The notes beneath the pieces are model-generated. The model was not told the DNA's origin. It saw only the letters and a program-made list of their open reading frames with translations, and did no database searches. A DNA stretch of 63,753 nt, the filler included. It is 8 parts of 8 records of this genome, joined end to end, with 100 filler letters (N's around TTAATTAATTAA, not from the genome) between each part and the next. Parts side by side here need not be neighbours in the genome. Positions count along the whole stretch, not along the records: positions 1 to 12,987 come from SRR31147125_29097; 7 more parts are not named here. One strand, written 5' to 3'. The position numbers were made by a program, and so were the translations under genes. This document shows positions 4,018-13,087 of this stretch, piece by piece; the stretch's first letter is position 1; every line of letters starts with the position of its first letter.

Positions 4018-4425
4018 ATGAGTGCGAAATCAGACGCAAGCATGCCGACAGCAGACAACCACAACAACACGAATGAGGAGAAGAAGATGGGTAATGAAAT
4101 TCAGAGCTACATGGTGAAGAAAAATACTGTCGTCAAAGTAATTCGCTTTGATGATCCCAGCGATTTTGATAGCGGCCATTTCTATGTGGATGAATGGGTA
4201 ACAGAAGGAATGTTTGGTTTTAATCAAAGCTATCTTGTTGCCACTTTTGAATGCGTCTGTTGTGGAGAGGTCAGCTACGTCTTCGATCACAACTATTGCG
4301 GTTTTGTTGAAATTAACGGAAAAGACCTGATTTTAACCGAGCTTTCAATCGCCGAATTTTGTGCAGAGCATTATTCCGAAGACCACAATGCTATGCGGGG
4401 CAGAGCAGATGACAACGCTGCATAA
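4018..4425 (+). CDS. Hypothetical protein with a CxCCG motif
   Basis: 135-aa ORF with AAGGA SD; alternative start at 4087 behind GAGGAG. Confidence 0.5.
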   Translation: MSAKSDASMPTADNHNNTNEEKKMGNEIQSYMVKKNTVVKVIRFDDPSDFDSGHFYVDEWVTEGMFGFNQSYLVATFECVCCGEVSYVFDHNYCGFVEINGKDLILTELSIAEFCAEHYSEDHNAMRGRADDNAA

Positions 4426-4482
4426 GCAAACGATCAAATAGAAAAAATCCGTACGCATTAACCTTATTGAAAGGAAATTATT

Positions 4483-5346
4483 ATGACTAAGAAGAATGCT
4501 GAAGCAAACGAGCAAGTTGACGTAAACGAGCAGAATTTAGCCGCCAACGCACTTATGACGTTTAAAAATCGTTTTGAAACGATTTGCAAGCGCAGAGAGG
4601 AATGGGAGCAGACGCTGTTCAGCACAGCCAACAAGAGCCTGTATGACATGCTTGCAGAACTTTACAAGCTGTATGACGAAATGAGTGCTGATGATAAAGC
4701 AACTGAATTGAAGCGGACTTGGCTGGTTGACGAAGCTAAGCGACGCGAGATTGCATTTAAAAAGAACAAGCCGTCTTTAATTGAACTGTTGGTGAAGGTT
4801 GCTTTCACCAGCACCGTAAAAGACAGCAGACGAGTTAGTGCATACGTTCGCGTACTGAATATTATTGCTAACACTGAAGGCGTTTACGCAGCAGACATTC
4901 CAAAGTGGATTGAGGCGCAGGGCGGCATTGAAGAAATCCGTCAGCAAACAGCCAAAAACACTGCGACTCGCACTGAGCGTTTTGAAAAAGGTAAAGAAAT
5001 TGTGGCTGAAACTGAAACATTGGCATCTGTCAGCATTGATGCAGCCAGCCCATACGTGTCAGGCAACGTCAACAAGCCTGTTGTTCTTGTCGGCATTATG
5101 AAAGCAGACGGCGTCATCGACATTAAGCACATATGCGTTGAAAACGAAGAAGGCAGCAAGATTTCCGGCAAAACTGCCATCAACACGGCGTTGGCAAATG
5201 TCTACAGCAAGCATAACGACAAGCAGAAGAAAGACGAGCCAAAACAAAAGGCTGAAGAGGTTGCTGACGAGAGCGTGGACAACAGACAAAAGGTTTTGGA
5301 GATGATTAAGCAGGTAAAGGCTGGCAACGTTAATTACGCCGCCTAA
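4483..5346 (+). CDS. Conserved hypothetical protein (helical N-terminus; RVSAYxRVL and WIxxxGGIEEIR motifs)
   Basis: 287-aa ORF with GAAAGGA SD, co-oriented with the AAA+ gene. Confidence 0.75.
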   Translation: MTKKNAEANEQVDVNEQNLAANALMTFKNRFETICKRREEWEQTLFSTANKSLYDMLAELYKLYDEMSADDKATELKRTWLVDEAKRREIAFKKNKPSLIELLVKVAFTSTVKDSRRVSAYVRVLNIIANTEGVYAADIPKWIEAQGGIEEIRQQTAKNTATRTERFEKGKEIVAETETLASVSIDAASPYVSGNVNKPVVLVGIMKADGVIDIKHICVENEEGSKISGKTAINTALANVYSKHNDKQKKDEPKQKAEEVADESVDNRQKVLEMIKQVKAGNVNYAA

Positions 5347-5349
5347 CAC

Positions 5350-5379
5350 AATGACCCCGCCTAAAGCGGCGGGGTCATT
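5350..5379 (+). promoter_or_regulatory. GC-rich intercistronic hairpin without U-tract
   Basis: AATGACCCCGC-8nt-GCGGGGTCATT, a perfect 11-bp stem. Confidence 0.55.
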
Positions 5380-5428
5380 CCCTAACATCCAAATAAATCA
5401 ATTAACGAAAAATTTTAAGGAGATATGT

Positions 5429-6097
5429 ATGAATTACATTACTGAGCCAAAATCGACTGCTGACATGGTATTTGTTGACAAAAGCATTAAAAATCAACTG
5501 CTCGACATTCTTTGCAAGGACTATCCGTTCCCAATAAAAAACGGAAAAAACTCCCTGCTTTTGTATGGTGTGCCTGGCACTGGCAAGTCAACTTATGCAA
5601 AGATTTTTCTGAATGATTTTGAACTGACTTTTGGTGGTATTAATCCACCTATACATACAGTTGACTGCCAAAAAACACAAAATATAACGAGCATTCTTAG
5701 CACATGTAATGCCATTGCTGATAAGGCAGGACTTTTTACTGATTCAAGCTTTCATTATTTTGTTTTCGATGAAGTCGATAACTTGACAGCAGACGGACAG
5801 AGAGCGCTGAAGTCATTTTTGAACAGGCCAAATATCGTATGTGTGTTAACGACTAACCATTTGCAAAAAATTGATGAAGGCTTGATGAGCAGATGTGTGC
5901 AGCTAAATTTTAATGCGGCAAAAGAAGCTGATTGCATTGAGCGTTTTAAGGATGTGCTAGCTGCTAATAAATTGCCAATGCTGCCTGATGTCGCATTGGA
6001 AGAGATTGCTAGATCCAATAATGGTGATTGGCGAGCGATGATGCCAACGCTGATTTGGGCAGCAAACGAATATAAGAAGATGAGCTTTGCTGCATAG
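5429..6097 (+). CDS. Clamp-loader-clade AAA+ ATPase (RFC small subunit / T4 gp44-like), lacking the C-terminal collar
   Basis: ATG 5429 after AAGGAG. Walker A GVPGTGKS, Walker B FDEVD, sensor-1 TTN, SRC arginine finger, GDWR sensor-2. Only 222 aa. Confidence 0.8.
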   Translation: MNYITEPKSTADMVFVDKSIKNQLLDILCKDYPFPIKNGKNSLLLYGVPGTGKSTYAKIFLNDFELTFGGINPPIHTVDCQKTQNITSILSTCNAIADKAGLFTDSSFHYFVFDEVDNLTADGQRALKSFLNRPNIVCVLTTNHLQKIDEGLMSRCVQLNFNAAKEADCIERFKDVLAANKLPMLPDVALEEIARSNNGDWRAMMPTLIWAANEYKKMSFAA

Positions 6098-6192: not shown

Positions 6193-6591
6193 ATGGCAAA
6201 AAATTACACGATGTATGAAAAAGAGAGTTGGGCAGACGAGCATTTTCCGCCTGTTGACGAAGCTGCTGATGATGTTGAGCTTGAGCAGAAACTACGTACT
6301 GTCTGCATGAAAGGGGCACGCTACATTGACCAACTGGCGGTTAGTACGAACAGGGCTTTGCACAGCATTCATCCGCCTAATCGTTATTTGCGGTATTTTA
6401 CTAATAGGGGCGATTTAGGAAGTGTTGGCGGTGAAAAGTTCGAAATGATTGCCAGCAGCGGCGGCGTCGAATACACCAACGAATATCAATTTGCGACTTT
6501 GCTGAAAGATCAAGTTGATGCAGAGGTTGTGAAGAAGTCGATTGAGCTTGTGCTTCAGTTTACGAAAGACCCTGCAATAAAAAGTATTTGA
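6193..6591 (+). CDS. Hypothetical protein
   Basis: 132-aa ORF with GAAGGGGG SD; terminator-like hairpin at ~6654-6683. Confidence 0.6.
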   Translation: MAKNYTMYEKESWADEHFPPVDEAADDVELEQKLRTVCMKGARYIDQLAVSTNRALHSIHPPNRYLRYFTNRGDLGSVGGEKFEMIASSGGVEYTNEYQFATLLKDQVDAEVVKKSIELVLQFTKDPAIKSI

Positions 6592-6759
6592 ATGGCGTGT
6601 AGCATAGTCCGTTGTTGAAATCGGCTATAGCATGTCAGTTCTTTGTGAAAAATGGGTCTAGCGAATCGTTAGGCCCCTTTTTTGTTGTGGCTGCTTCTGA
6701 AACCGTTTTTGCATAAATCAAATAAAAAACCATCTTTTTCAGCCATTTCTTTGCAGTCG

Positions 6760-6777
6760 GCATAAATAACTTTATGC
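6760..6777 (+). promoter_or_regulatory. T4-late-type ATAAATA box embedded in a hairpin that occludes the ATG
   Basis: GCATAAA-taac-TTTATGC stem; ATAAATA at 6762-6768, ATG at 6774. Confidence 0.55.
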
Positions 6778-7133
6778 ACAGACGAAATAAAGAAAACAAT
6801 TTACATTGGTACGATGAAAAACGATTAGAGCAAAGGGACAAGCAGCACGAGAAAATGACAGAAGAGTGGCTAAAAGAGAACGGTCTGAAAGCAAAAACAT
6901 TTCAGTCCTCGCCGCTGGAGCAGGTTCAAGCCGCCAGCGTAGCCCATCACTTGCTGACTGACTTTCCACATTTGCTTAACGAGACACAAGCAGAGGCACT
7001 GAACGAATATTCAGAAGCATTCAATAACAAGCGGCTACGTGAGAAAATTACACAGACGCAAGCGTATCGCATTCTGAATATCAGTAAAAAAGTGAATCGT
7101 AAACTGTTCAAGCAATACAGACAACAGGTATAA
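6774..7133 (+). CDS. Basic helical hypothetical protein, probably translated leaderless
   Basis: 119-aa ORF with no SD; ATG lies 5 nt after ATAAATA. Confidence 0.7.
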   Translation: MHRRNKENNLHWYDEKRLEQRDKQHEKMTEEWLKENGLKAKTFQSSPLEQVQAASVAHHLLTDFPHLLNETQAEALNEYSEAFNNKRLREKITQTQAYRILNISKKVNRKLFKQYRQQV

Positions 7134-7139
7134 ACAGGC

Positions 7140-7525
7140 ATAAAAGCAGATAAGCCACTGCATTAACAAAGGGCAAAAACGCGGGGTGAAATATGACGGC
7201 TAATGCCCCCGCACCCGTCAGCAGATTGCTGCGAAGGTCGCTGACATACGGGTGGGTGCCGCAGAGCGACTACAGTTTATGTGGTTCGGAAGTTTGAATA
7301 CGACCGTCTTCCGTTAAATGGCTCTTTTCGCAGTCGTGTTTGTGGTTCTCTTTTTACAATCAAAACACGATGACGACGGCAGTTCTGTTTTTTTTAATGG
7401 AAGCAGGACATAGCCGTCGTTTTGGATTCAGCATTCCCAATCAATCTCGTATCGCTTCGCTGCTAAAGAAAAAAGATAAGCGATGAGCGCAAGCGAAGAG
7501 CAGGCGAACGCAGTTTCGCCTTTCA
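7140..7525 (+). ncRNA. Highly structured non-coding region (ncRNA or single-stranded DNA origin)
   Basis: At least seven stems in ~380 nt with no ORF, including G-U-supported pairing on the + strand (7382-7390 with 7401-7409) and a potential pseudoknot (7181-7220). Confidence 0.55.
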
Positions 7526-7549
7526 CAATACCAGCAAGGAGAAGTGTTT

Positions 7550-7879
7550 ATGCCTAAGTACAAAATCACAATGCTCAAAAGATTTACGGTTGTTGAAAAG
7601 CACTGGGATGAATTCGATACGACAGATCAGAGTAAGTGGGATGAGCTACGTAAAAAAGCATCTGACTGTATTGGTAAGGCAGATGTTGAGAGTGGTTTTT
7701 CGGCAGAAGCACCAGATGATATCGACAAGTGGTATGAACTGTATTACCTGACGATGGACGAAGTTAGTGAAAATAAAGAAGAGGATTGGGATAAGGATGC
7801 TCGATTCGGGCCTGATCGAGTTTTCAAAATTGAGGATAGCAATTCCAATGTTGTGATGGAGGAAGAAGACTATTATTGA
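7550..7879 (+). CDS. Acidic hypothetical protein
   Basis: ATG 7550 after AAGGAG; D/E-rich. Confidence 0.6.
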   Translation: MPKYKITMLKRFTVVEKHWDEFDTTDQSKWDELRKKASDCIGKADVESGFSAEAPDDIDKWYELYYLTMDEVSENKEEDWDKDARFGPDRVFKIEDSNSNVVMEEEDYY

Positions 7880-8214
7880 TAATAGGTCAAAAATCACCAG
7901 CCTAAAACGATAAGTACTTCACCTAAAAAAACCGCATGTCATCTTAAAAGGCTGTAAAAGGTCTTTTGCCTCTGTTTTGCCCTACAACACACGATCGCTA
8001 AATAATGAAGAGTCGAGTCGCTGGCTACAACATCAGCCAGCGATAGACTATTTGTTCTCTTTATGGGATTTGCTGAGAGACCAAAGAAAATTACAAAAAT
8101 AATATCTGTTGTGTAAATTCAGTAGCTTAAGCGCGGATGTTTTCAGGTAGGAATCATTCACTAAAGAAAATATTATTACATATATAGATTATTTGGTTGA
8201 AAGGAGAAAAAACA

Positions 8215-8781
8215 ATGGCAAAAGCAAAAGCACTAACACAAGCAGAAATTGATCAGGTGTTACGTTATGTCGCAAATACCCGTTACGCCACTCGCAATCG
8301 CATGTTGATATTGATTAGCATATGGAGCGGGATGCGCGCCGGAGAAATTGCTGCAATTAAAATCAGCCATGTAATGAATGATGATGGAAGCATTAAGCAA
8401 GAAATTCGTTTAACAGCACAGCAGACAAAGGGTCACTACGCAAGAGTGGTCTTTTTGAATGAGAAATTGCGTGTTGAGTTGGCGGCATATTTGTCAGAAC
8501 GCAATACACAAAACAGGTCATTGCCGCTGTTTGACACAGAGAAGTCGCGTGGCTTTTCTGCTAACACGCTGACGCAGTGGTATTACTGGACGTACAAGAA
8601 TGCAGGCATCAGCGGTGCAAGTAGCCACAGTGGGCGCAAGACTTTCATAACCTCGCTGGCCCAAAAAGGAATTGGCGTACGAGTGCTAGCGAGTTTGGCA
8701 GGTCATCGCTCAATTGCAGTAACCCAAACCTACATTGATGTGAATGATGAAATGAAACGGCAAGCAGTTGAACTTGTTTGA
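8215..8781 (+). CDS. Small catalytic-domain-only tyrosine recombinase
   Basis: GMRAGE (catalytic R), TKG (K), HSGRK (HxxR), LAGH and TxxY. 188 aa with no N-terminal binding domains. SD AAAGGAG. Confidence 0.9.
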   Translation: MAKAKALTQAEIDQVLRYVANTRYATRNRMLILISIWSGMRAGEIAAIKISHVMNDDGSIKQEIRLTAQQTKGHYARVVFLNEKLRVELAAYLSERNTQNRSLPLFDTEKSRGFSANTLTQWYYWTYKNAGISGASSHSGRKTFITSLAQKGIGVRVLASLAGHRSIAVTQTYIDVNDEMKRQAVELV

Positions 8782-8788
8782 TTAACTA

Positions 8789-8822
8789 CTAAATACGCAT
8801 GGAGGTATTTTCCATGCGTATT
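8789..8822 (+). promoter_or_regulatory. T4-late-type CTAAATA box overlapping the 5' arm of a hairpin that sequesters the RBS and ATG
   Basis: CTAAATA at 8789-8795. Perfect 12-bp stem AATACGCATGGA (8792-8803) / TCCATGCGTATT (8811-8822) covering part of the GGAGG SD and the ATG at 8814. Confidence 0.6.
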
Positions 8823-8969
8823 GAAGAAGTCGTATCTGACGCTGAACAGAGAAACGTCGACCAAAAAAAGAAGGCAGCAAAGCAGGCAAAACTGACAGCC
8901 CAAAAAGCCGCCGCCAACCTCAAAATCCGCAAAGCCCAGCAGAAACTACAAAAACTAAATAGCATTTAA
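8814..8969 (+). CDS. Unannotated 51-aa Lys/Ala/Gln-rich protein (MRIEEVVSDAEQRNVDQKKKAAKQAKLTAQKAAANLKIRKAQQKLQKLNSI)
   Basis: Translated by hand. GGAGG SD 8 nt before the ATG, TAA at 8967-8969; shorter than any ORF in the supplied track. Confidence 0.75.
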   Translation: MRIEEVVSDAEQRNVDQKKKAAKQAKLTAQKAAANLKIRKAQQKLQKLNSI

Positions 8970-9024
8970 GCGTAAATCTGGTTATAAATTATGATAGTTC
9001 TAATTGTTCTGCATTGGAGGGGAT

Positions 9025-9630
9025 ATGATTGGTAAATTCTTTCGTAAAACGCGCAAGGCAATGAATTATGAAGAGCTTCGCTCAATCTCAATCGCTGTAG
9101 CGAATAACTTTGGCAACGATAAGGGGTCTATCCTAAGCACTTTGGCAAGGACGGAAGGAGAAACTATTGAATTCATCGAATATATAGATTCAGACCTTTT
9201 AGAGGTGTCAAATCTATCTTCTGTTGATGAACAATTGTTTAGCTTTCGAAGCAAGACACTGGATATGATAGAAAGGTCTTATAATGTTAGGCCTTTAATA
9301 GATAAAAGCTTTTGTGACTATGACAGGAAGTTGCTAGTTGAACATTTTTATTCAGATAAAAGTTATGAAGATGCCATTCAGTCAGCAATAACCGAAGCCA
9401 TTTACTCTCAAGCTGGTTACACTTGTTACGGTATTCTTTGTGAAAAACTAGGCGATAAAGATACTGCTAAATGGTTTCAGTTATATAGTGATCTTTATAG
9501 TGAATACACTAATAAGGTGAACAGGGAGATAGTTTGCAAAGAAAAATCAGATGATTCTTTTTCTTCTGAGATTAGTGTTGTTAAGGGCCAAGTCGATTTG
9601 GCGAGAGCGAGCATTACTGGCTTTGGATAA
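9025..9630 (+). CDS. Hypothetical cargo protein
   Basis: ATG 9025 after GGAGG; low GC. Confidence 0.65.
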   Translation: MIGKFFRKTRKAMNYEELRSISIAVANNFGNDKGSILSTLARTEGETIEFIEYIDSDLLEVSNLSSVDEQLFSFRSKTLDMIERSYNVRPLIDKSFCDYDRKLLVEHFYSDKSYEDAIQSAITEAIYSQAGYTCYGILCEKLGDKDTAKWFQLYSDLYSEYTNKVNREIVCKEKSDDSFSSEISVVKGQVDLARASITGFG

Positions 9631-9699
9631 AGTATTAGAATTTAAAATTTATATATTCAGACGGCTTTTTTTGATCCAATTGCATAAAATATTAAGAAG

Positions 9700-10173
9700 T
9701 TAAAAGTTTTGGTGGTAGATGTCAAAGTTGACGATTTCTACACTGCTTCCTGTTTCGTTTATGTCTTCATATTCACCAATAACTGAATTTAGAGTGAATC
9801 TATACTTTTCAAAAATTAGGCGCAATTCAACGTCATTTTTGTGGAAATGATAAGACTTTATGAATTCCATTGTTTCGCTAAACTGATTTTTGTTGAGAAA
9901 TAAGCCGATATTCATAGCTATTTCGTTTTTGTCATTCTCTATGAAATAGATTCCCCCTAAGTAATTATCTATTGTGCAATTATCTACGTTTAAAATTGTG
10001 ATGTTAGAGCTTTTTTTAGAATCATTGTGTCTACAATAGCAATTAATATGGGAGTGAAAGTCATCATTAATAACATTGATATTGTGACTTAAGATTCCTT
10101 CGATAACAAAATTCAAACTATCTAATCGATATAATTCGTCGATCTCCTCTGTTTTCCACGTTTCATTCCTCAT
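9700..10173 (-). CDS. Hypothetical cargo protein
   Basis: 157-aa ORF, very AT-rich. Confidence 0.55.
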   Translation of the reverse strand: MRNETWKTEEIDELYRLDSLNFVIEGILSHNINVINDDFHSHINCYCRHNDSKKSSNITILNVDNCTIDNYLGGIYFIENDKNEIAMNIGLFLNKNQFSETMEFIKSYHFHKNDVELRLIFEKYRFTLNSVIGEYEDINETGSSVEIVNFDIYHQNF

Positions 10174-10203
10174 CTTTAGAGCCTTTTATTTAAGTTTTGT
10201 TGC

Positions 10204-10887
10204 TTAGTTTGTGTCTTTAGCTTCATTTATCGATTTTGTCATTATGCTTCTACCGTATTTGTGTGCATGATTTAGTTGTTCTGCTGATTCAACGGCATTG
10301 TTGAATTTAGAGTTGAACTCATTGACAAGGACGTCTGTTTTTAGAAAAACTTCATCGCCGTTAAAGGTTATATTTGAATGGTTTTCAATTACAAACATGT
10401 AAAAAATAGATAGGTCATTAAGGTACTTGTTTTCCATCTGTTCGAAGTATGCTTGACTTGTCCCTTCTAGTCTTCCTTTCTTTTCTGTAGCCTTTCCTGT
10501 TTTCATTCTATTTTCTTTTAGTAGGGAGTCTAGCTGGTCGTAATGACTTTTTTGAATGGTCCTATACTGATCAATATTTTTTAGAAATATTTCAGCAACT
10601 TCTTTGTCTTTCAACTGCTGAAGGCTTGATAGTTCATAGGTGCCAATTAGTGATGATTTTTCTGCAAAAGATTCGTTCAATTTATTAAGGCGAGACATGA
10701 ACTCAGACATTATTGCTTGAAATTCATTTTTAGGAGAATTTAAGTCAATTTGTCCTTTTTGGGTATCTATGCCTTCTAGCATCCATTTAACGTCTTCGTC
10801 TGTTACGGAAACCTCTTTTTGGGCGTAGATTGGCAAGGCAGTGATTGTGATAAGTGCTGCTAGAATTGCTGAAATGTAAAGTTTCAT
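10204..10887 (-). CDS. Secreted/periplasmic helical hypothetical protein
   Basis: Signal peptide MKLYISAILAALITITALPIYA; GGAGG SD. Confidence 0.7.
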   Translation of the reverse strand: MKLYISAILAALITITALPIYAQKEVSVTDEDVKWMLEGIDTQKGQIDLNSPKNEFQAIMSEFMSRLNKLNESFAEKSSLIGTYELSSLQQLKDKEVAEIFLKNIDQYRTIQKSHYDQLDSLLKENRMKTGKATEKKGRLEGTSQAYFEQMENKYLNDLSIFYMFVIENHSNITFNGDEVFLKTDVLVNEFNSKFNNAVESAEQLNHAHKYGRSIMTKSINEAKDTN

Positions 10888-10911
10888 GCCCCCTCCAGTT
10901 TGATTGTAGTG

Positions 10912-11394
10912 TTAATTTCTTGCCCTTCTGTCTTCTTGTAAGCCTCTTCTGTTTTCATCATCTTTTTCCATTTCAGAAATATATTTGTCGATGAGGCTTG
11001 AAAGTTCTCCGTTCGTTTTATGTATTTCAATAAGTTTTGTTTCTAGTTTTAGTTGTGAAAGATTGATAAAGTTTGTTTCGGAATTTGGAATGCTTTCTTT
11101 TATGTTTTGAATTGCATTCTGATCAATCGCTATGCTGGCTTTCCATTTTTCAGTCATGCTGGACTTTAGTACGCCTCTTGCTGCTGAAATGGCTATGCGC
11201 GATTTATCTGCAGATCTGATCAGCTCTTCTAGCTTTTGTGTGTTTCTGTGGGCTTTGTTTATTTCTTTGCGCAGTTCAAGTCGGAGGTCTAATGATTTGA
11301 GCTTGCTAGCTTTTCGATAACCGATTACGCCACTAAAGGCACCAATAATTCCAGTTGCCATACCAACGTAGCTAGTCCAGTGTGGGTCTGCCAT
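10912..11394 (-). CDS. Membrane-anchored coiled-coil hypothetical protein
   Basis: N-terminal hydrophobic helix (WTSYVGMATGIIGAFSGVIGY) followed by a heptad-rich region; GAGGG SD. Confidence 0.7.
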   Translation of the reverse strand: MADPHWTSYVGMATGIIGAFSGVIGYRKASKLKSLDLRLELRKEINKAHRNTQKLEELIRSADKSRIAISAARGVLKSSMTEKWKASIAIDQNAIQNIKESIPNSETNFINLSQLKLETKLIEIHKTNGELSSLIDKYISEMEKDDENRRGLQEDRRARN

Positions 11395-11480
11395 GTGCCC
11401 CTCGCTTTCGTTCTTATTGAATTACATCTTTTTCTCAAAAACAATTCAAGTTGTAAATTTGGAGATTGGATATTTCGTTT

Positions 11481-12917
11481 TTATTTCTTATTTATGAGCT
11501 GTTCTAATAGCTTTTGTATCTGCTCGGCTTGTTTGGCATTTTGCTCTACCAATTGCCGTATTGTTGAGCTGTTTTCCTCTTCAGCTTTTTGCTTGTCCTT
11601 TGTTGCCCGTCTTTCGTGTCCTGCAAATTTGTTAGGGTTGTCGCTGACTTTGAAGTGGCTGTAGTGCTGCTCAAGCATCTTTACGCTCGTACCCATTTGT
11701 ACGCTGAGATCGTCAAAACTAATGCCCTTGTAGCGCATACGTGATGCATAAGTGTGACGCAGTGAGTACAGCGTTCTTGCTTCGCCAAAGTCGTCCCTTA
11801 ATAATCCGTCTTCTCTGCCTTCAACTTTTATCCATTTCAGTACACGCTTAAAGGCTTTGGTTAGTTGCTCCTGTACAGCTAGCTCACCGTTTGGATAGCG
11901 GAAGATGTGTTCGTCGCATTCAAACAGTTTGTCCCAATCCAAATCCTTCAAATTGTCAAATCTGTTTTTTATGTTTTCGAGCGGCTTCCAGCAGCCGTAT
12001 TTGACGCCATCTTCGCGCACAAATGGCTCATAACCAATAACAACACGCCTCTTTGTTTTACTGTGCGGCAAAGAGAATTGAATGCTTTCCATGCCGTGTT
12101 GTTTAGTGATGCTCAAATTTTTCCACTTTAAGCTAAGTATTTCACTGCCAGGTCGCATGCCTGTATTGACGAGTATGCGCACAACATCAATAAGCAGTTC
12201 GCGTATCCAAAATGTTTTTTGGCCTATGTTGTCAATGCCGTTGCGACCTTTTTGGTGTAGCAGCTTTTCGCTGTGTTTAAGGTAGCGCCACATGTTTGCA
12301 TTGAGCTTCTTCATTTCCTTGTCGTTAAAGTATGGCCGTCTTTTGCCCTCAACGCCGTCATTAATTGTTTTAGGGATGAACTGAATAAAGTTCTTCTCTT
12401 TTGCTTTGCGGAACAAGTAATTGAGGGCTGAGTTGTGCGTGGCAATAGTGGATTGAGTTGGCGCATGGCCAATCATCTCTCTACGCTTGTCTGAATACAT
12501 GCGCAGGGCAGTAGTGTCGATATTGTGGCACATGTAACTGCCGAGTATGGGTTGGATATATTTGTCTATTATCTGCACATAGTTTTTGGGTGTCTGCTGA
12601 CCCGTTCTTTCAGCTTCGTCCAATAGCTCTTTTCTGTAGAGTTGGCAGATGCTTGAAAACCTACGTGTTACGTCTATTTTGCCTGTCTTCTGCGCATACT
12701 GTATTTCTCTGTAGCGTTCTTCTGCGGCAGCAGTGGCTTGCTCAAAGTCAGCACACTTGGTGCTATAAACAACCCATTCTCCGCTGTTTCTGCGAATACG
12801 GGCTTGCCAACGTTTGCTTCTATTGCGCTTGAATAGGACGACAGCGCCATTGCATATGGCGCGCTCATCTTTCGGAATGGTATTGAGGGGTTGGGCGGTT
12901 TGCTGTTTATCTGACAT
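11481..12917 (-). CDS. int: Tyrosine integrase of the island (arm-binding N-terminal domain, core and catalytic domains)
   Basis: N-terminal KRxRSxxWQARI, NTGMRPG, SKT, YSLRHTY, QMGTSVKMLEQHY; coiled-coil C-terminal tail. Confidence 0.9.
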   Translation of the reverse strand: MSDKQQTAQPLNTIPKDERAICNGAVVLFKRNRSKRWQARIRRNSGEWVVYSTKCADFEQATAAAEERYREIQYAQKTGKIDVTRRFSSICQLYRKELLDEAERTGQQTPKNYVQIIDKYIQPILGSYMCHNIDTTALRMYSDKRREMIGHAPTQSTIATHNSALNYLFRKAKEKNFIQFIPKTINDGVEGKRRPYFNDKEMKKLNANMWRYLKHSEKLLHQKGRNGIDNIGQKTFWIRELLIDVVRILVNTGMRPGSEILSLKWKNLSITKQHGMESIQFSLPHSKTKRRVVIGYEPFVREDGVKYGCWKPLENIKNRFDNLKDLDWDKLFECDEHIFRYPNGELAVQEQLTKAFKRVLKWIKVEGREDGLLRDDFGEARTLYSLRHTYASRMRYKGISFDDLSVQMGTSVKMLEQHYSHFKVSDNPNKFAGHERRATKDKQKAEEENSSTIRQLVEQNAKQAEQIQKLLEQLINKK

Positions 12918-12987: not shown

Positions 12988-13087
12988 NNNNNNNNNNNNN
13001 NNNNNNNNNNNNNNNNNNNNNNNNNNNNNNNTTAATTAATTAANNNNNNNNNNNNNNNNNNNNNNNNNNNNNNNNNNNNNNNNNNNN
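12988..13087. other. Artificial contig-join spacer (N-run with TTAATTAATTAA); six more identical spacers follow
   Basis: 100-nt N spacer with a six-frame stop linker, repeated at 24024, 29191, 35006, 43122, 53360 and 58635. Confidence 0.98.

Follow-up and report, generated by a model that had tools for sequence, protein, structure and literature searches.

Several genes of bacteriophage T4 (e, soc, 49 and I-TevI) are served by late promoters that encode the 5′ strand of a helix inhibiting their translation, as set out in section 29 of PMC3014915. Late promoters of T4 carry the consensus TATAAATA at -13 to -6, the first T of which is poorly conserved in relatives, and the late consensus of Aeromonas phage Aeh1 is CTAAATA, from -12 (both from passages of PMC1524935). 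In the T4 record itself, gene e reads TATAAATA-CTTAG-GAGGTATT-ATG, that is, the heptamer, 5 nt and then the Shine-Dalgarno sequence (SD). Promoter-gated translation is also familiar from IS10: in the IS10/Tn10 transposase mRNA, fold-back pairing silences read-through from outside, and the element's own promoter starts inside the pairing region. Here, we describe a comparable arrangement in a bacterial integrative island, found in a 63,753-nt stretch of DNA (the window) that joins eight parts of one genome. It consists of a small open reading frame (ORF) of 51 codons, a hairpin that buries its start codon and a heptamer, CTAAATA, that runs into the hairpin, all behind a mini tyrosine recombinase gene. 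An earlier note on this DNA had read the locus as a T4-style late translational switch. Its features are as follows.

8215-8781, plus strand: mini tyrosine recombinase gene, 188 aa from the conserved ATG 8215 (the mechanically called ORF starts at TTG 8197 and gives 194 aa), with stop codon TGA at 8779-8781
8789-8795, plus strand: heptamer CTAAATA, candidate -10-only, T4-late-like promoter element, overlapping the hairpin's 5′ arm by 4 nt
8792-8803, plus strand: 5′ arm of the hairpin, AATACGCATGGA, defined by sequence, fold and alignment of loci
8801-8805, plus strand: SD GGAGG, whose first G (8801) is the putative transcript start
8804-8810, plus strand: hairpin loop GGTATTT, from the sequence
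8811-8822, plus strand: 3′ arm of the hairpin, TCCATGCGTATT, containing the AUG (8814-8816) and codons 2-3
8814-8969, plus strand: gene for a basic protein of 51 aa (pI 10.35, 5.8 kDa), predicted to form a single long alpha-helix

The frame of the small ORF, read directly from the sequence, opens at ATG 8814, runs for 51 codons and ends at 8969, giving a translation identical to that of the earlier note. A second in-frame ATG, at 8799, is not kept in other loci, and the start is therefore placed at 8814. When 5.8 billion proteins were searched through a word index, 23 relatives with 75-86% identity came up (E 1.6e-15 to 1.8e-11); 18 have a length of exactly 51 aa, and 22 carry MRIEEV, either at the start or behind a short called extension. 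As DNA, the small ORF occurs in eight metagenome contigs, making nine copies with the window. Of the variable sites among these nine loci, 21 fall at the first codon position, 17 at the second and 39 at the third, and the median pairwise dN/dS is 0.11 at a dS of about 1 (34 computable pairs). By these comparisons, the small ORF is a genuine conserved gene under strong purifying selection at the protein level, and because selection acts on the protein, the ORF is presumably translated.

The family is a narrow one. A scan of 1.84 billion representatives with a hidden Markov model (HMM) recovered its own cluster and four weak matches, and no longer forms of the protein were found in the 'longer' length class that was searched. 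Neither Pfam nor PHROGs holds a family for it, and the ESM Atlas returned only unnamed small hypothetical clusters. No match to the small ORF was found by tblastn in 50,697 phage records or in plasmids, searches in which the low-complexity filter may hide matches, nor was there any in IMG/VR. An AlphaFold2 model places a helix at residues 3-50 (pLDDT 87). A frameshift fusion between the recombinase and the small ORF was considered and rejected, as TAA 8790-8792 closes the frame of the ORF.

The two arms form a perfect 12-bp inverted repeat around a 7-nt loop, to which ViennaRNA adds a thirteenth pair (G-U). The GGA of the SD and the entire AUG are paired, so the hairpin of the earlier note, said to pair part of the GGAGG and ATG 8814, was correctly drawn, and its fold is beyond chance. 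The RNA of 8770-8850 folds at -24.1 kcal/mol (z -3.62; none of 200 shuffles is as stable), and that of the full leader, 8782-8850, at -22.5 kcal/mol (z -3.95). With 3 of the 12 arm bases left, RNA starting at 8801 reaches a folding energy of -8.1 kcal/mol (z 0.15). Pairing of the AUG and part of the SD to an upstream strand is the arrangement of T4 e, soc, 49 and I-TevI. An Rfam scan of 6500-9200 gave only sub-threshold chance matches.

The hairpin is kept across the close relatives. In all nine loci, the AUG is buried in the minimum-energy fold, and when the arms are anchored on the heptamer and on the ATG, 86 of the 90 pair cells of the alignment (A2) are paired (95.6%); sliding the partner arm as a control pairs at most 58%. 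The covariation score is 0.239 vs 0.181 in shuffles, and 2 of 500 shuffles reach 0.239. Nine core pairs, AAUACGYRU/AUGCGUAUU, are retained in every locus, and the two variable bases of the 5′ arm undergo transitions only, preserving pairing through G-U. Next to the AUG, four loci have a G-C pair and five an A-U pair; one position further, five loci have G-C, two have A-U and in two the pair is broken. G-U wobbles, which would be mismatches in duplex DNA or in the opposite strand, make up 11 of the 90 cells. Taken together, the alignment indicates that the hairpin is conserved as plus-strand RNA, with compensatory changes. Loop length varies from about 7 to 19 nt between loci, and in two of them (L082 and L087) the SD lies in the loop, not the stem; occlusion of the AUG is common to all.

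The same layout recurs with other sequence in three Duganella loci, where a recombinase about 57% identical to that of the window is followed by another, distinct small ORF (62-68 aa, with MRY-x-E at its start). The arms are AAAUAUCGC/GCGAUAUUU in L023 and AAUAUCGCA/UGCGAUAUU in L021, and L017 is the same as L021 with one G-U wobble. The Duganella helix has, in effect, one inserted A-U pair. A terminator-like hairpin behind the L021 recombinase had also been entertained; the scan was negative and the argument was dropped.

The CTAAATA that the earlier note had seen overlapping the 5′ arm is indeed present at 8789-8795. All 12 loci of the small-ORF type carry [C/A]TAAATA, exactly 5 nt and then a purine-rich SD, and the T and A of the heptamer that lie outside the stem (8790-8791) are invariant in all nine close loci. 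Such invariance supports conservation of the heptamer beyond the needs of the stem. A TAAATA-type heptamer in or at the 5′ strand, followed by 5 nt and an SD, is also what T4 gene e displays. In the window, a heptamer set 5 nt before an SD or an ATG is confined to the island, with 2 cases among 13 heptamers; the remaining 50 kb hold 44 heptamers and no case. Two carrier genomes, G004 and G005, have four matches to TAAATANNTGTATG between them, each inside an island locus, and the reversed control gave none.

A second class of sites places the heptamer 5 nt upstream of an ATG that has no SD. Within the window, it is represented by the following pair of features.

6760-6777, plus strand: second heptamer ATAAATA (6762-6768) in a 7-bp hairpin, GCATAAA/TTTATGC, which buries ATG 6774; no SD
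6774-7133, plus strand: backbone gene of 119 aa, the mRNA of which would be leaderless, starting at A6774, if the heptamer is a promoter

Here, the RNA of 6745-6830 folds at -15.2 kcal/mol (z -2.6) and that from 6774 onward at -1.6 kcal/mol. The 119-aa protein has no Pfam or PHROG match; it is 82% identical in L085 and 33-43% identical in five further loci (L032, L002, L026, L016 and L020), and all seven homologous loci (33-82% identical) keep heptamer, 5 nt and ATG. Two of the seven hold the full TATAAATA. Counted over ORFs of at least 45 aa in all fetched loci and the window's island, the distance from heptamer to ATG has one sharp peak at exactly 5 nt (19 of 81 cases; the next bin holds 5), and seven permuted control motifs give 0-3 cases at that distance. 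The 19 genes have no SD and belong to at least five unrelated families; T as the first base (TTAAATA) appears once among these sites, in L016.

One of the families served in this way, of about 165-195 aa and marked by the motifs H-x-H and Y-I-T-K-E, precedes the mini-recombinase in relatives. Its copies, each behind a heptamer, 5 nt and ATG, are these.

L001, 1882-2406: H-x-H/Y-I-T-K-E family gene
L010, 1936-2433: H-x-H/Y-I-T-K-E family gene
L011, L018, L022 and L035: one copy of the family in each

One member has a weak match to REP_ORF2-G2P (E 0.0036, below the cut-off). The motifs and this match hint at an initiator of the rolling-circle type; the island of the window has no such gene. Separately, L018, L020, L026 and L001 carry an inverted repeat, ACCAAATAA...TTATTTGGT, immediately ahead of the heptamer of their SD-less sites, at the place of a -35 element; it may be an operator for a regulator of the island.

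We lean towards a reading in which the start point of its mRNA decides whether this genuine island gene is translated. Any transcript reading through from the recombinase gene or beyond carries the conserved hairpin, in which AAUACGCAUGGA pairs with the AUG, with codons 2-3 and with part of the SD. The heptamer, in and just before the arm, would act as a -10-only promoter element, with transcription beginning 6 nt past its last A, at G8801, the first base of the SD. Such a transcript would lack 9 of the 12 arm bases and should be translatable, because those bases are gone and the initiation region folds no better than shuffles. The SD-less class would be a second solution to the same problem: with the heptamer 5 nt before the ATG, only the gene's own transcript would yield a 5′-terminal, leaderless AUG. 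In both designs, read-through RNA would be silent and expression would be tied to one dedicated promoter type. The heptamer lies 18-24 nt from the AUG in the SD class and 5 nt from it in the SD-less class; what stays constant is its spacing from whichever functional element comes first in the mRNA, SD or AUG, and not from the AUG in both. A signal for the start of transcription accounts for this best.

The likeness to T4 has limits. What stands of the T4-style switch is the conserved sequestering hairpin, its compensatory changes and a heptamer with the 5-nt spacing to the SD that T4 e also has; what does not is the setting, as the window's switch lies not in a T4-like phage genome but in a bacterial integrative island, with no gp55, gp33 or T4-like gene nearby. 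With C or A as the first heptamer base, the island sites match TATAAATA at six of eight positions and the Aeh1 variant at seven of seven, and they share with T4-like late promoters their sequence, the lack of a -35 element and the distance to the putative start, as far as the passages of PMC1524935 describe these. The late consensus variants given there cover C and A, the two commonest first bases at the island sites, and do not cover the TTAAATA of L016. The island also uses its heptamer for SD-less, apparently leaderless starts; a literature search found no T4 counterpart described and, on heptamer, late promoter and leaderless starts together, returned nothing usable. IS10/Tn10 resembles the island in being a mobile element with a start region paired to upstream RNA, and differs in promoter type, element class and gene product.

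Nor does the heptamer resemble a sigma-70 promoter. Position-2 A and position-6 T are the two most conserved bases of the sigma-70 -10 box; in the register TAAATA the final T is absent, and in the register [C/A]TAAAT the A at position 2 is. No -35 consensus was found upstream of the heptamer sites, and a sigma-70 consensus scan gave no site at 8790. Because there is no -35, no scan site and a key -10 position is broken in either register, sigma-70 is a poor candidate, whereas the sequence fits published T4-type late promoters.

Several observations weigh against the promoter-gated reading. Four to five of the seven heptamer bases lie in the stem and only two to three outside it, so at the small-ORF loci the need to pair with the coding arm could by itself account for conservation of the heptamer. 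The cases with 5-nt spacing are not fully independent, as homologous genes inherit their upstream regions too, and a fixed spacing might equally belong to an AU-rich element with a role in translation, not transcription. A transcript from the first base of the SD would give the ribosome no 5′ extension, a feature shared with T4 e, and most other genes of the island have ordinary SDs and no heptamer. A search for the gp55 family (phrog_234) found no match in any of five carrier genomes (T4, as positive control, scored 2.5e-70), and Pfam and PHROG scans of the island proteins found no sigma family, so these searches yielded no candidate reader of a heptamer promoter.

Among the alternatives, the one that survives best, itself improbable in our view, holds that the hairpin damps translation constitutively, so that the small protein stays scarce, or couples its synthesis to ribosomes completing the upstream gene, with no internal promoter and the heptamer kept only for pairing with codons 2-3. 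It would accommodate the heptamer bases within the stem and the lack of a promoter-like site in the sigma-70 scan. Spacing is suggestive too: the stem lies 10 nt past the upstream stop in six of the eight loci with a recombinase upstream, and 6 and 15 nt past it in the other two. A ribosome at a stop codon covers about 10 nt beyond it, however, and would on this geometry only touch the stem, not open it. Moreover, the module lies 31, 34 and 97 nt past the recombinase stop in Duganella, and about 60 nt past the stop of an unrelated gene in L088. Because these distances vary, ribosome-driven coupling is not the conserved principle. Damping or coupling also leaves unexplained both the invariant T and A outside the stem and the heptamer at 5 nt before SD-less ATGs in other families.

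A bolder version of promoter gating, which we rate as decidedly speculative, would make [C/A]TAAATA true gp55-type late promoters on widespread bacterial islands that lack such a sigma factor of their own. Island genes would then stay silent until the late machinery of a gp55-bearing phage switched them on, making the island a new kind of phage-triggered satellite or defence element, one that senses late transcription. Nothing else links it to phages: no virion genes were found among its scanned ORFs, and no small-ORF relatives in phage records or IMG/VR. The same results leave unsupported the loading of the protein into helper proheads, which the earlier note proposed, and a satellite reading. 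The sliding clamp has a role in T4 late transcription, according to a passage of PMC1524935. With that role in mind, the presence of a clamp-loader-like ATPase in the island is curious; no evidence linking the two was found.

It is less likely still that the heptamer is a translational signal, an AU-rich enhancer or a ribosome-docking site 5 nt before an SD or an SD-less AUG, with the hairpin regulating access. A fixed distance to SD or AUG would also be expected of a ribosome-positioning element, and the genes with 5-nt spacing to the ATG do lack SDs. Against this, a docking element should hold its distance to the AUG, which instead shifts between the two classes, and the exact invariance of TAAATA would better fit sequence-specific recognition by a protein than AU-richness of the S1 type.

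We find it very hard to credit the inverted repeat as a core-type DNA site for the neighbouring recombinase, with two arms and a 7-bp spacer. Arms of 11-12 bp around such a spacer do lie right behind the recombinase gene in the window, L085 and L086, but the arm spacing varies between loci with the loops, the wobble cells would be mismatches in a duplex, no second copy exists in the 63.7-kb window and L088 retains the repeat without a recombinase. Least credible of all is the hairpin as a terminator or 3′-end stabiliser of the recombinase mRNA with an untranslated ORF: a stable stem (-21 to -24 kcal/mol) 10 nt past the stop would suit it, but GAAGAAG and not a U-tract follows the stem, a consensus scan gave no plus-strand terminator-like site and the ORF is under strong purifying selection as a protein.

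The recombinase itself belongs to PF00589 (E 4.5e-24, residues 12-185 of 194) and to the integrases of phrog_216 (E 1.5e-40). It consists of the catalytic domain only, with no separate N-terminal core-binding domain at this length. Its start, MAKAKALTQ, and its SD, AAAGGAG, are common to the window, L082 and L085. The leader at 8150-8214 is highly conserved in the latter two loci, with TATATAAATTA there and TATATAGATTA in the window, and is probably the recombinase's own promoter region. Relatives of the recombinase number 97 in genome contigs (alignment A4 covers 37 of the recombinase loci), and the single relative in IMG/VR, L090, lacks the heptamer design.

The association between recombinase and small ORF is loose. 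Seven of the eight metagenome copies of the small ORF lie behind a recombinase C-terminus; in the eighth, L088, ORF and hairpin follow a different gene, with no recombinase upstream. The recombinases of L084 and L086 are only 43% and 48% identical to that of the window, and their small ORFs are 76-80% identical. The expectation that the small ORF and a compensated stem would be found behind homologous recombinases is borne out in close relatives and fails in distant ones: in 80 genome loci of recombinase relatives (41-69% identical), tblastn gave one weak match, located elsewhere in L010. Inspection of 40 of these 80 genome loci revealed no analogous downstream small ORF.

As to what the small protein does, the earlier note saw a capsid-targeting-like N-terminus, by analogy with T4 internal proteins. 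In the T4 record, IPII and IPIII begin MKTYQEFIAE and IPI begins MKTFKEF. These proteins are, like the small protein, small and basic, with Met, a basic residue, hydrophobics and Glu at the N-terminus. Aligned without gaps, MRIEEVVSDA and MKTYQEFIAE are identical only at Met1, and the comparison does not hold up; the Duganella ORFs (MRYSELIE) come closer to MKTYQEFIAE, only with a gap. Part of the N-terminal conservation is explained by the RNA, because codons 1-3 are constrained by the stem. A start of the form M-R-hydrophobic-x-E-[IVL] recurs in other small ORFs of the islands; hhalign comparisons with the MR-x-x-E ORFs of L016, L001 and L023 were not significant (probabilities 2.0, 5.4 and 0.1), and we therefore do not claim one family. 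Our guess is that the protein is a nucleic-acid binder or a coiled-coil adaptor that would act once the island is on.

The conserved backbone of the island, which ends with the small ORF, is common to loci in Methylophilaceae, Polynucleobacter and others and comprises an integrase, the mini-recombinase, a clamp-loader-like cassette and the 119-aa gene. Other features of the window's island are these.

11481-12917, minus strand: large tyrosine integrase (PF00589, E 9.4e-07), at the island end and adjoining the N-run 12988-13087
4018-6097: three-gene cassette encoding a protein of 135 aa, one of 287 aa (4483-5346) and a clamp-loader-like AAA+ ATPase of 248 aa
148-624, minus strand: DUF6641 protein gene, adjoining the OLD/GajA/AriA-like ATPase gene
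756-2732: OLD/GajA/AriA-like ATPase of 658 aa (PADLOC Old, E 1.8e-23)

In L083, a 90%-identical homologue of the large integrase lies about 500 nt beyond the small ORF, an interval occupied in the window by 2.5 kb of other genes; because of this, 8971-11480 is taken as variable cargo. The N-run 12988-13087 sits where an attachment site or target gene would be expected, and ARAGORN found no tRNA genes in the window. Scans of the island ORFs found no capsid, terminase or other virion genes, and 7900-9700 has no DNA match in plasmids or phages. Within the cassette, the 248-aa ATPase matches phrog_168 (E 1.4e-24). The 287-aa protein, considered as a possible island-encoded reader of the heptamer, has relatives in seven loci; its model (pLDDT 68.5, with an N-terminal helical domain at 80-90) found nothing in the PDB at E <= 0.001 by Foldseek. 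The DUF6641 protein and the OLD/GajA/AriA-like ATPase probably represent defence cargo. Finally, 7133-7540 is a relatively GC-rich stretch of about 400 nt without a credible ORF, 87% identical to L085. Over its best part, tblastx gives 88-95% identity to L085 in all frames, and there is no above-threshold Rfam match. It could be a non-coding RNA of the island, an origin or a transfer site.

A start-occluding helix with a promoter in its 5′ strand has been described for T4, in a section of PMC3014915. In the loci compared here, it appears as a family-wide rule in uncharacterised, widespread integrative islands, and it adds a real family of 51-aa genes to a class often missed by gene callers. 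Starts of two interchangeable forms follow the rule, one with an SD gated by a hairpin and one leaderless, and a single heptamer that resembles T4-type late promoters, and not host ones, anchors both. If the heptamer is a promoter, it would name the control point of these islands, and their regulated genes could be found by a simple rule of sequence. Should a phage sigma factor be what reads it, phage late transcription would be the trigger of chromosomal islands; we know of no earlier chromosomal element with such a trigger. Were the gp55-type reading true, the small basic helix could act on, or enter, phage heads or DNA.

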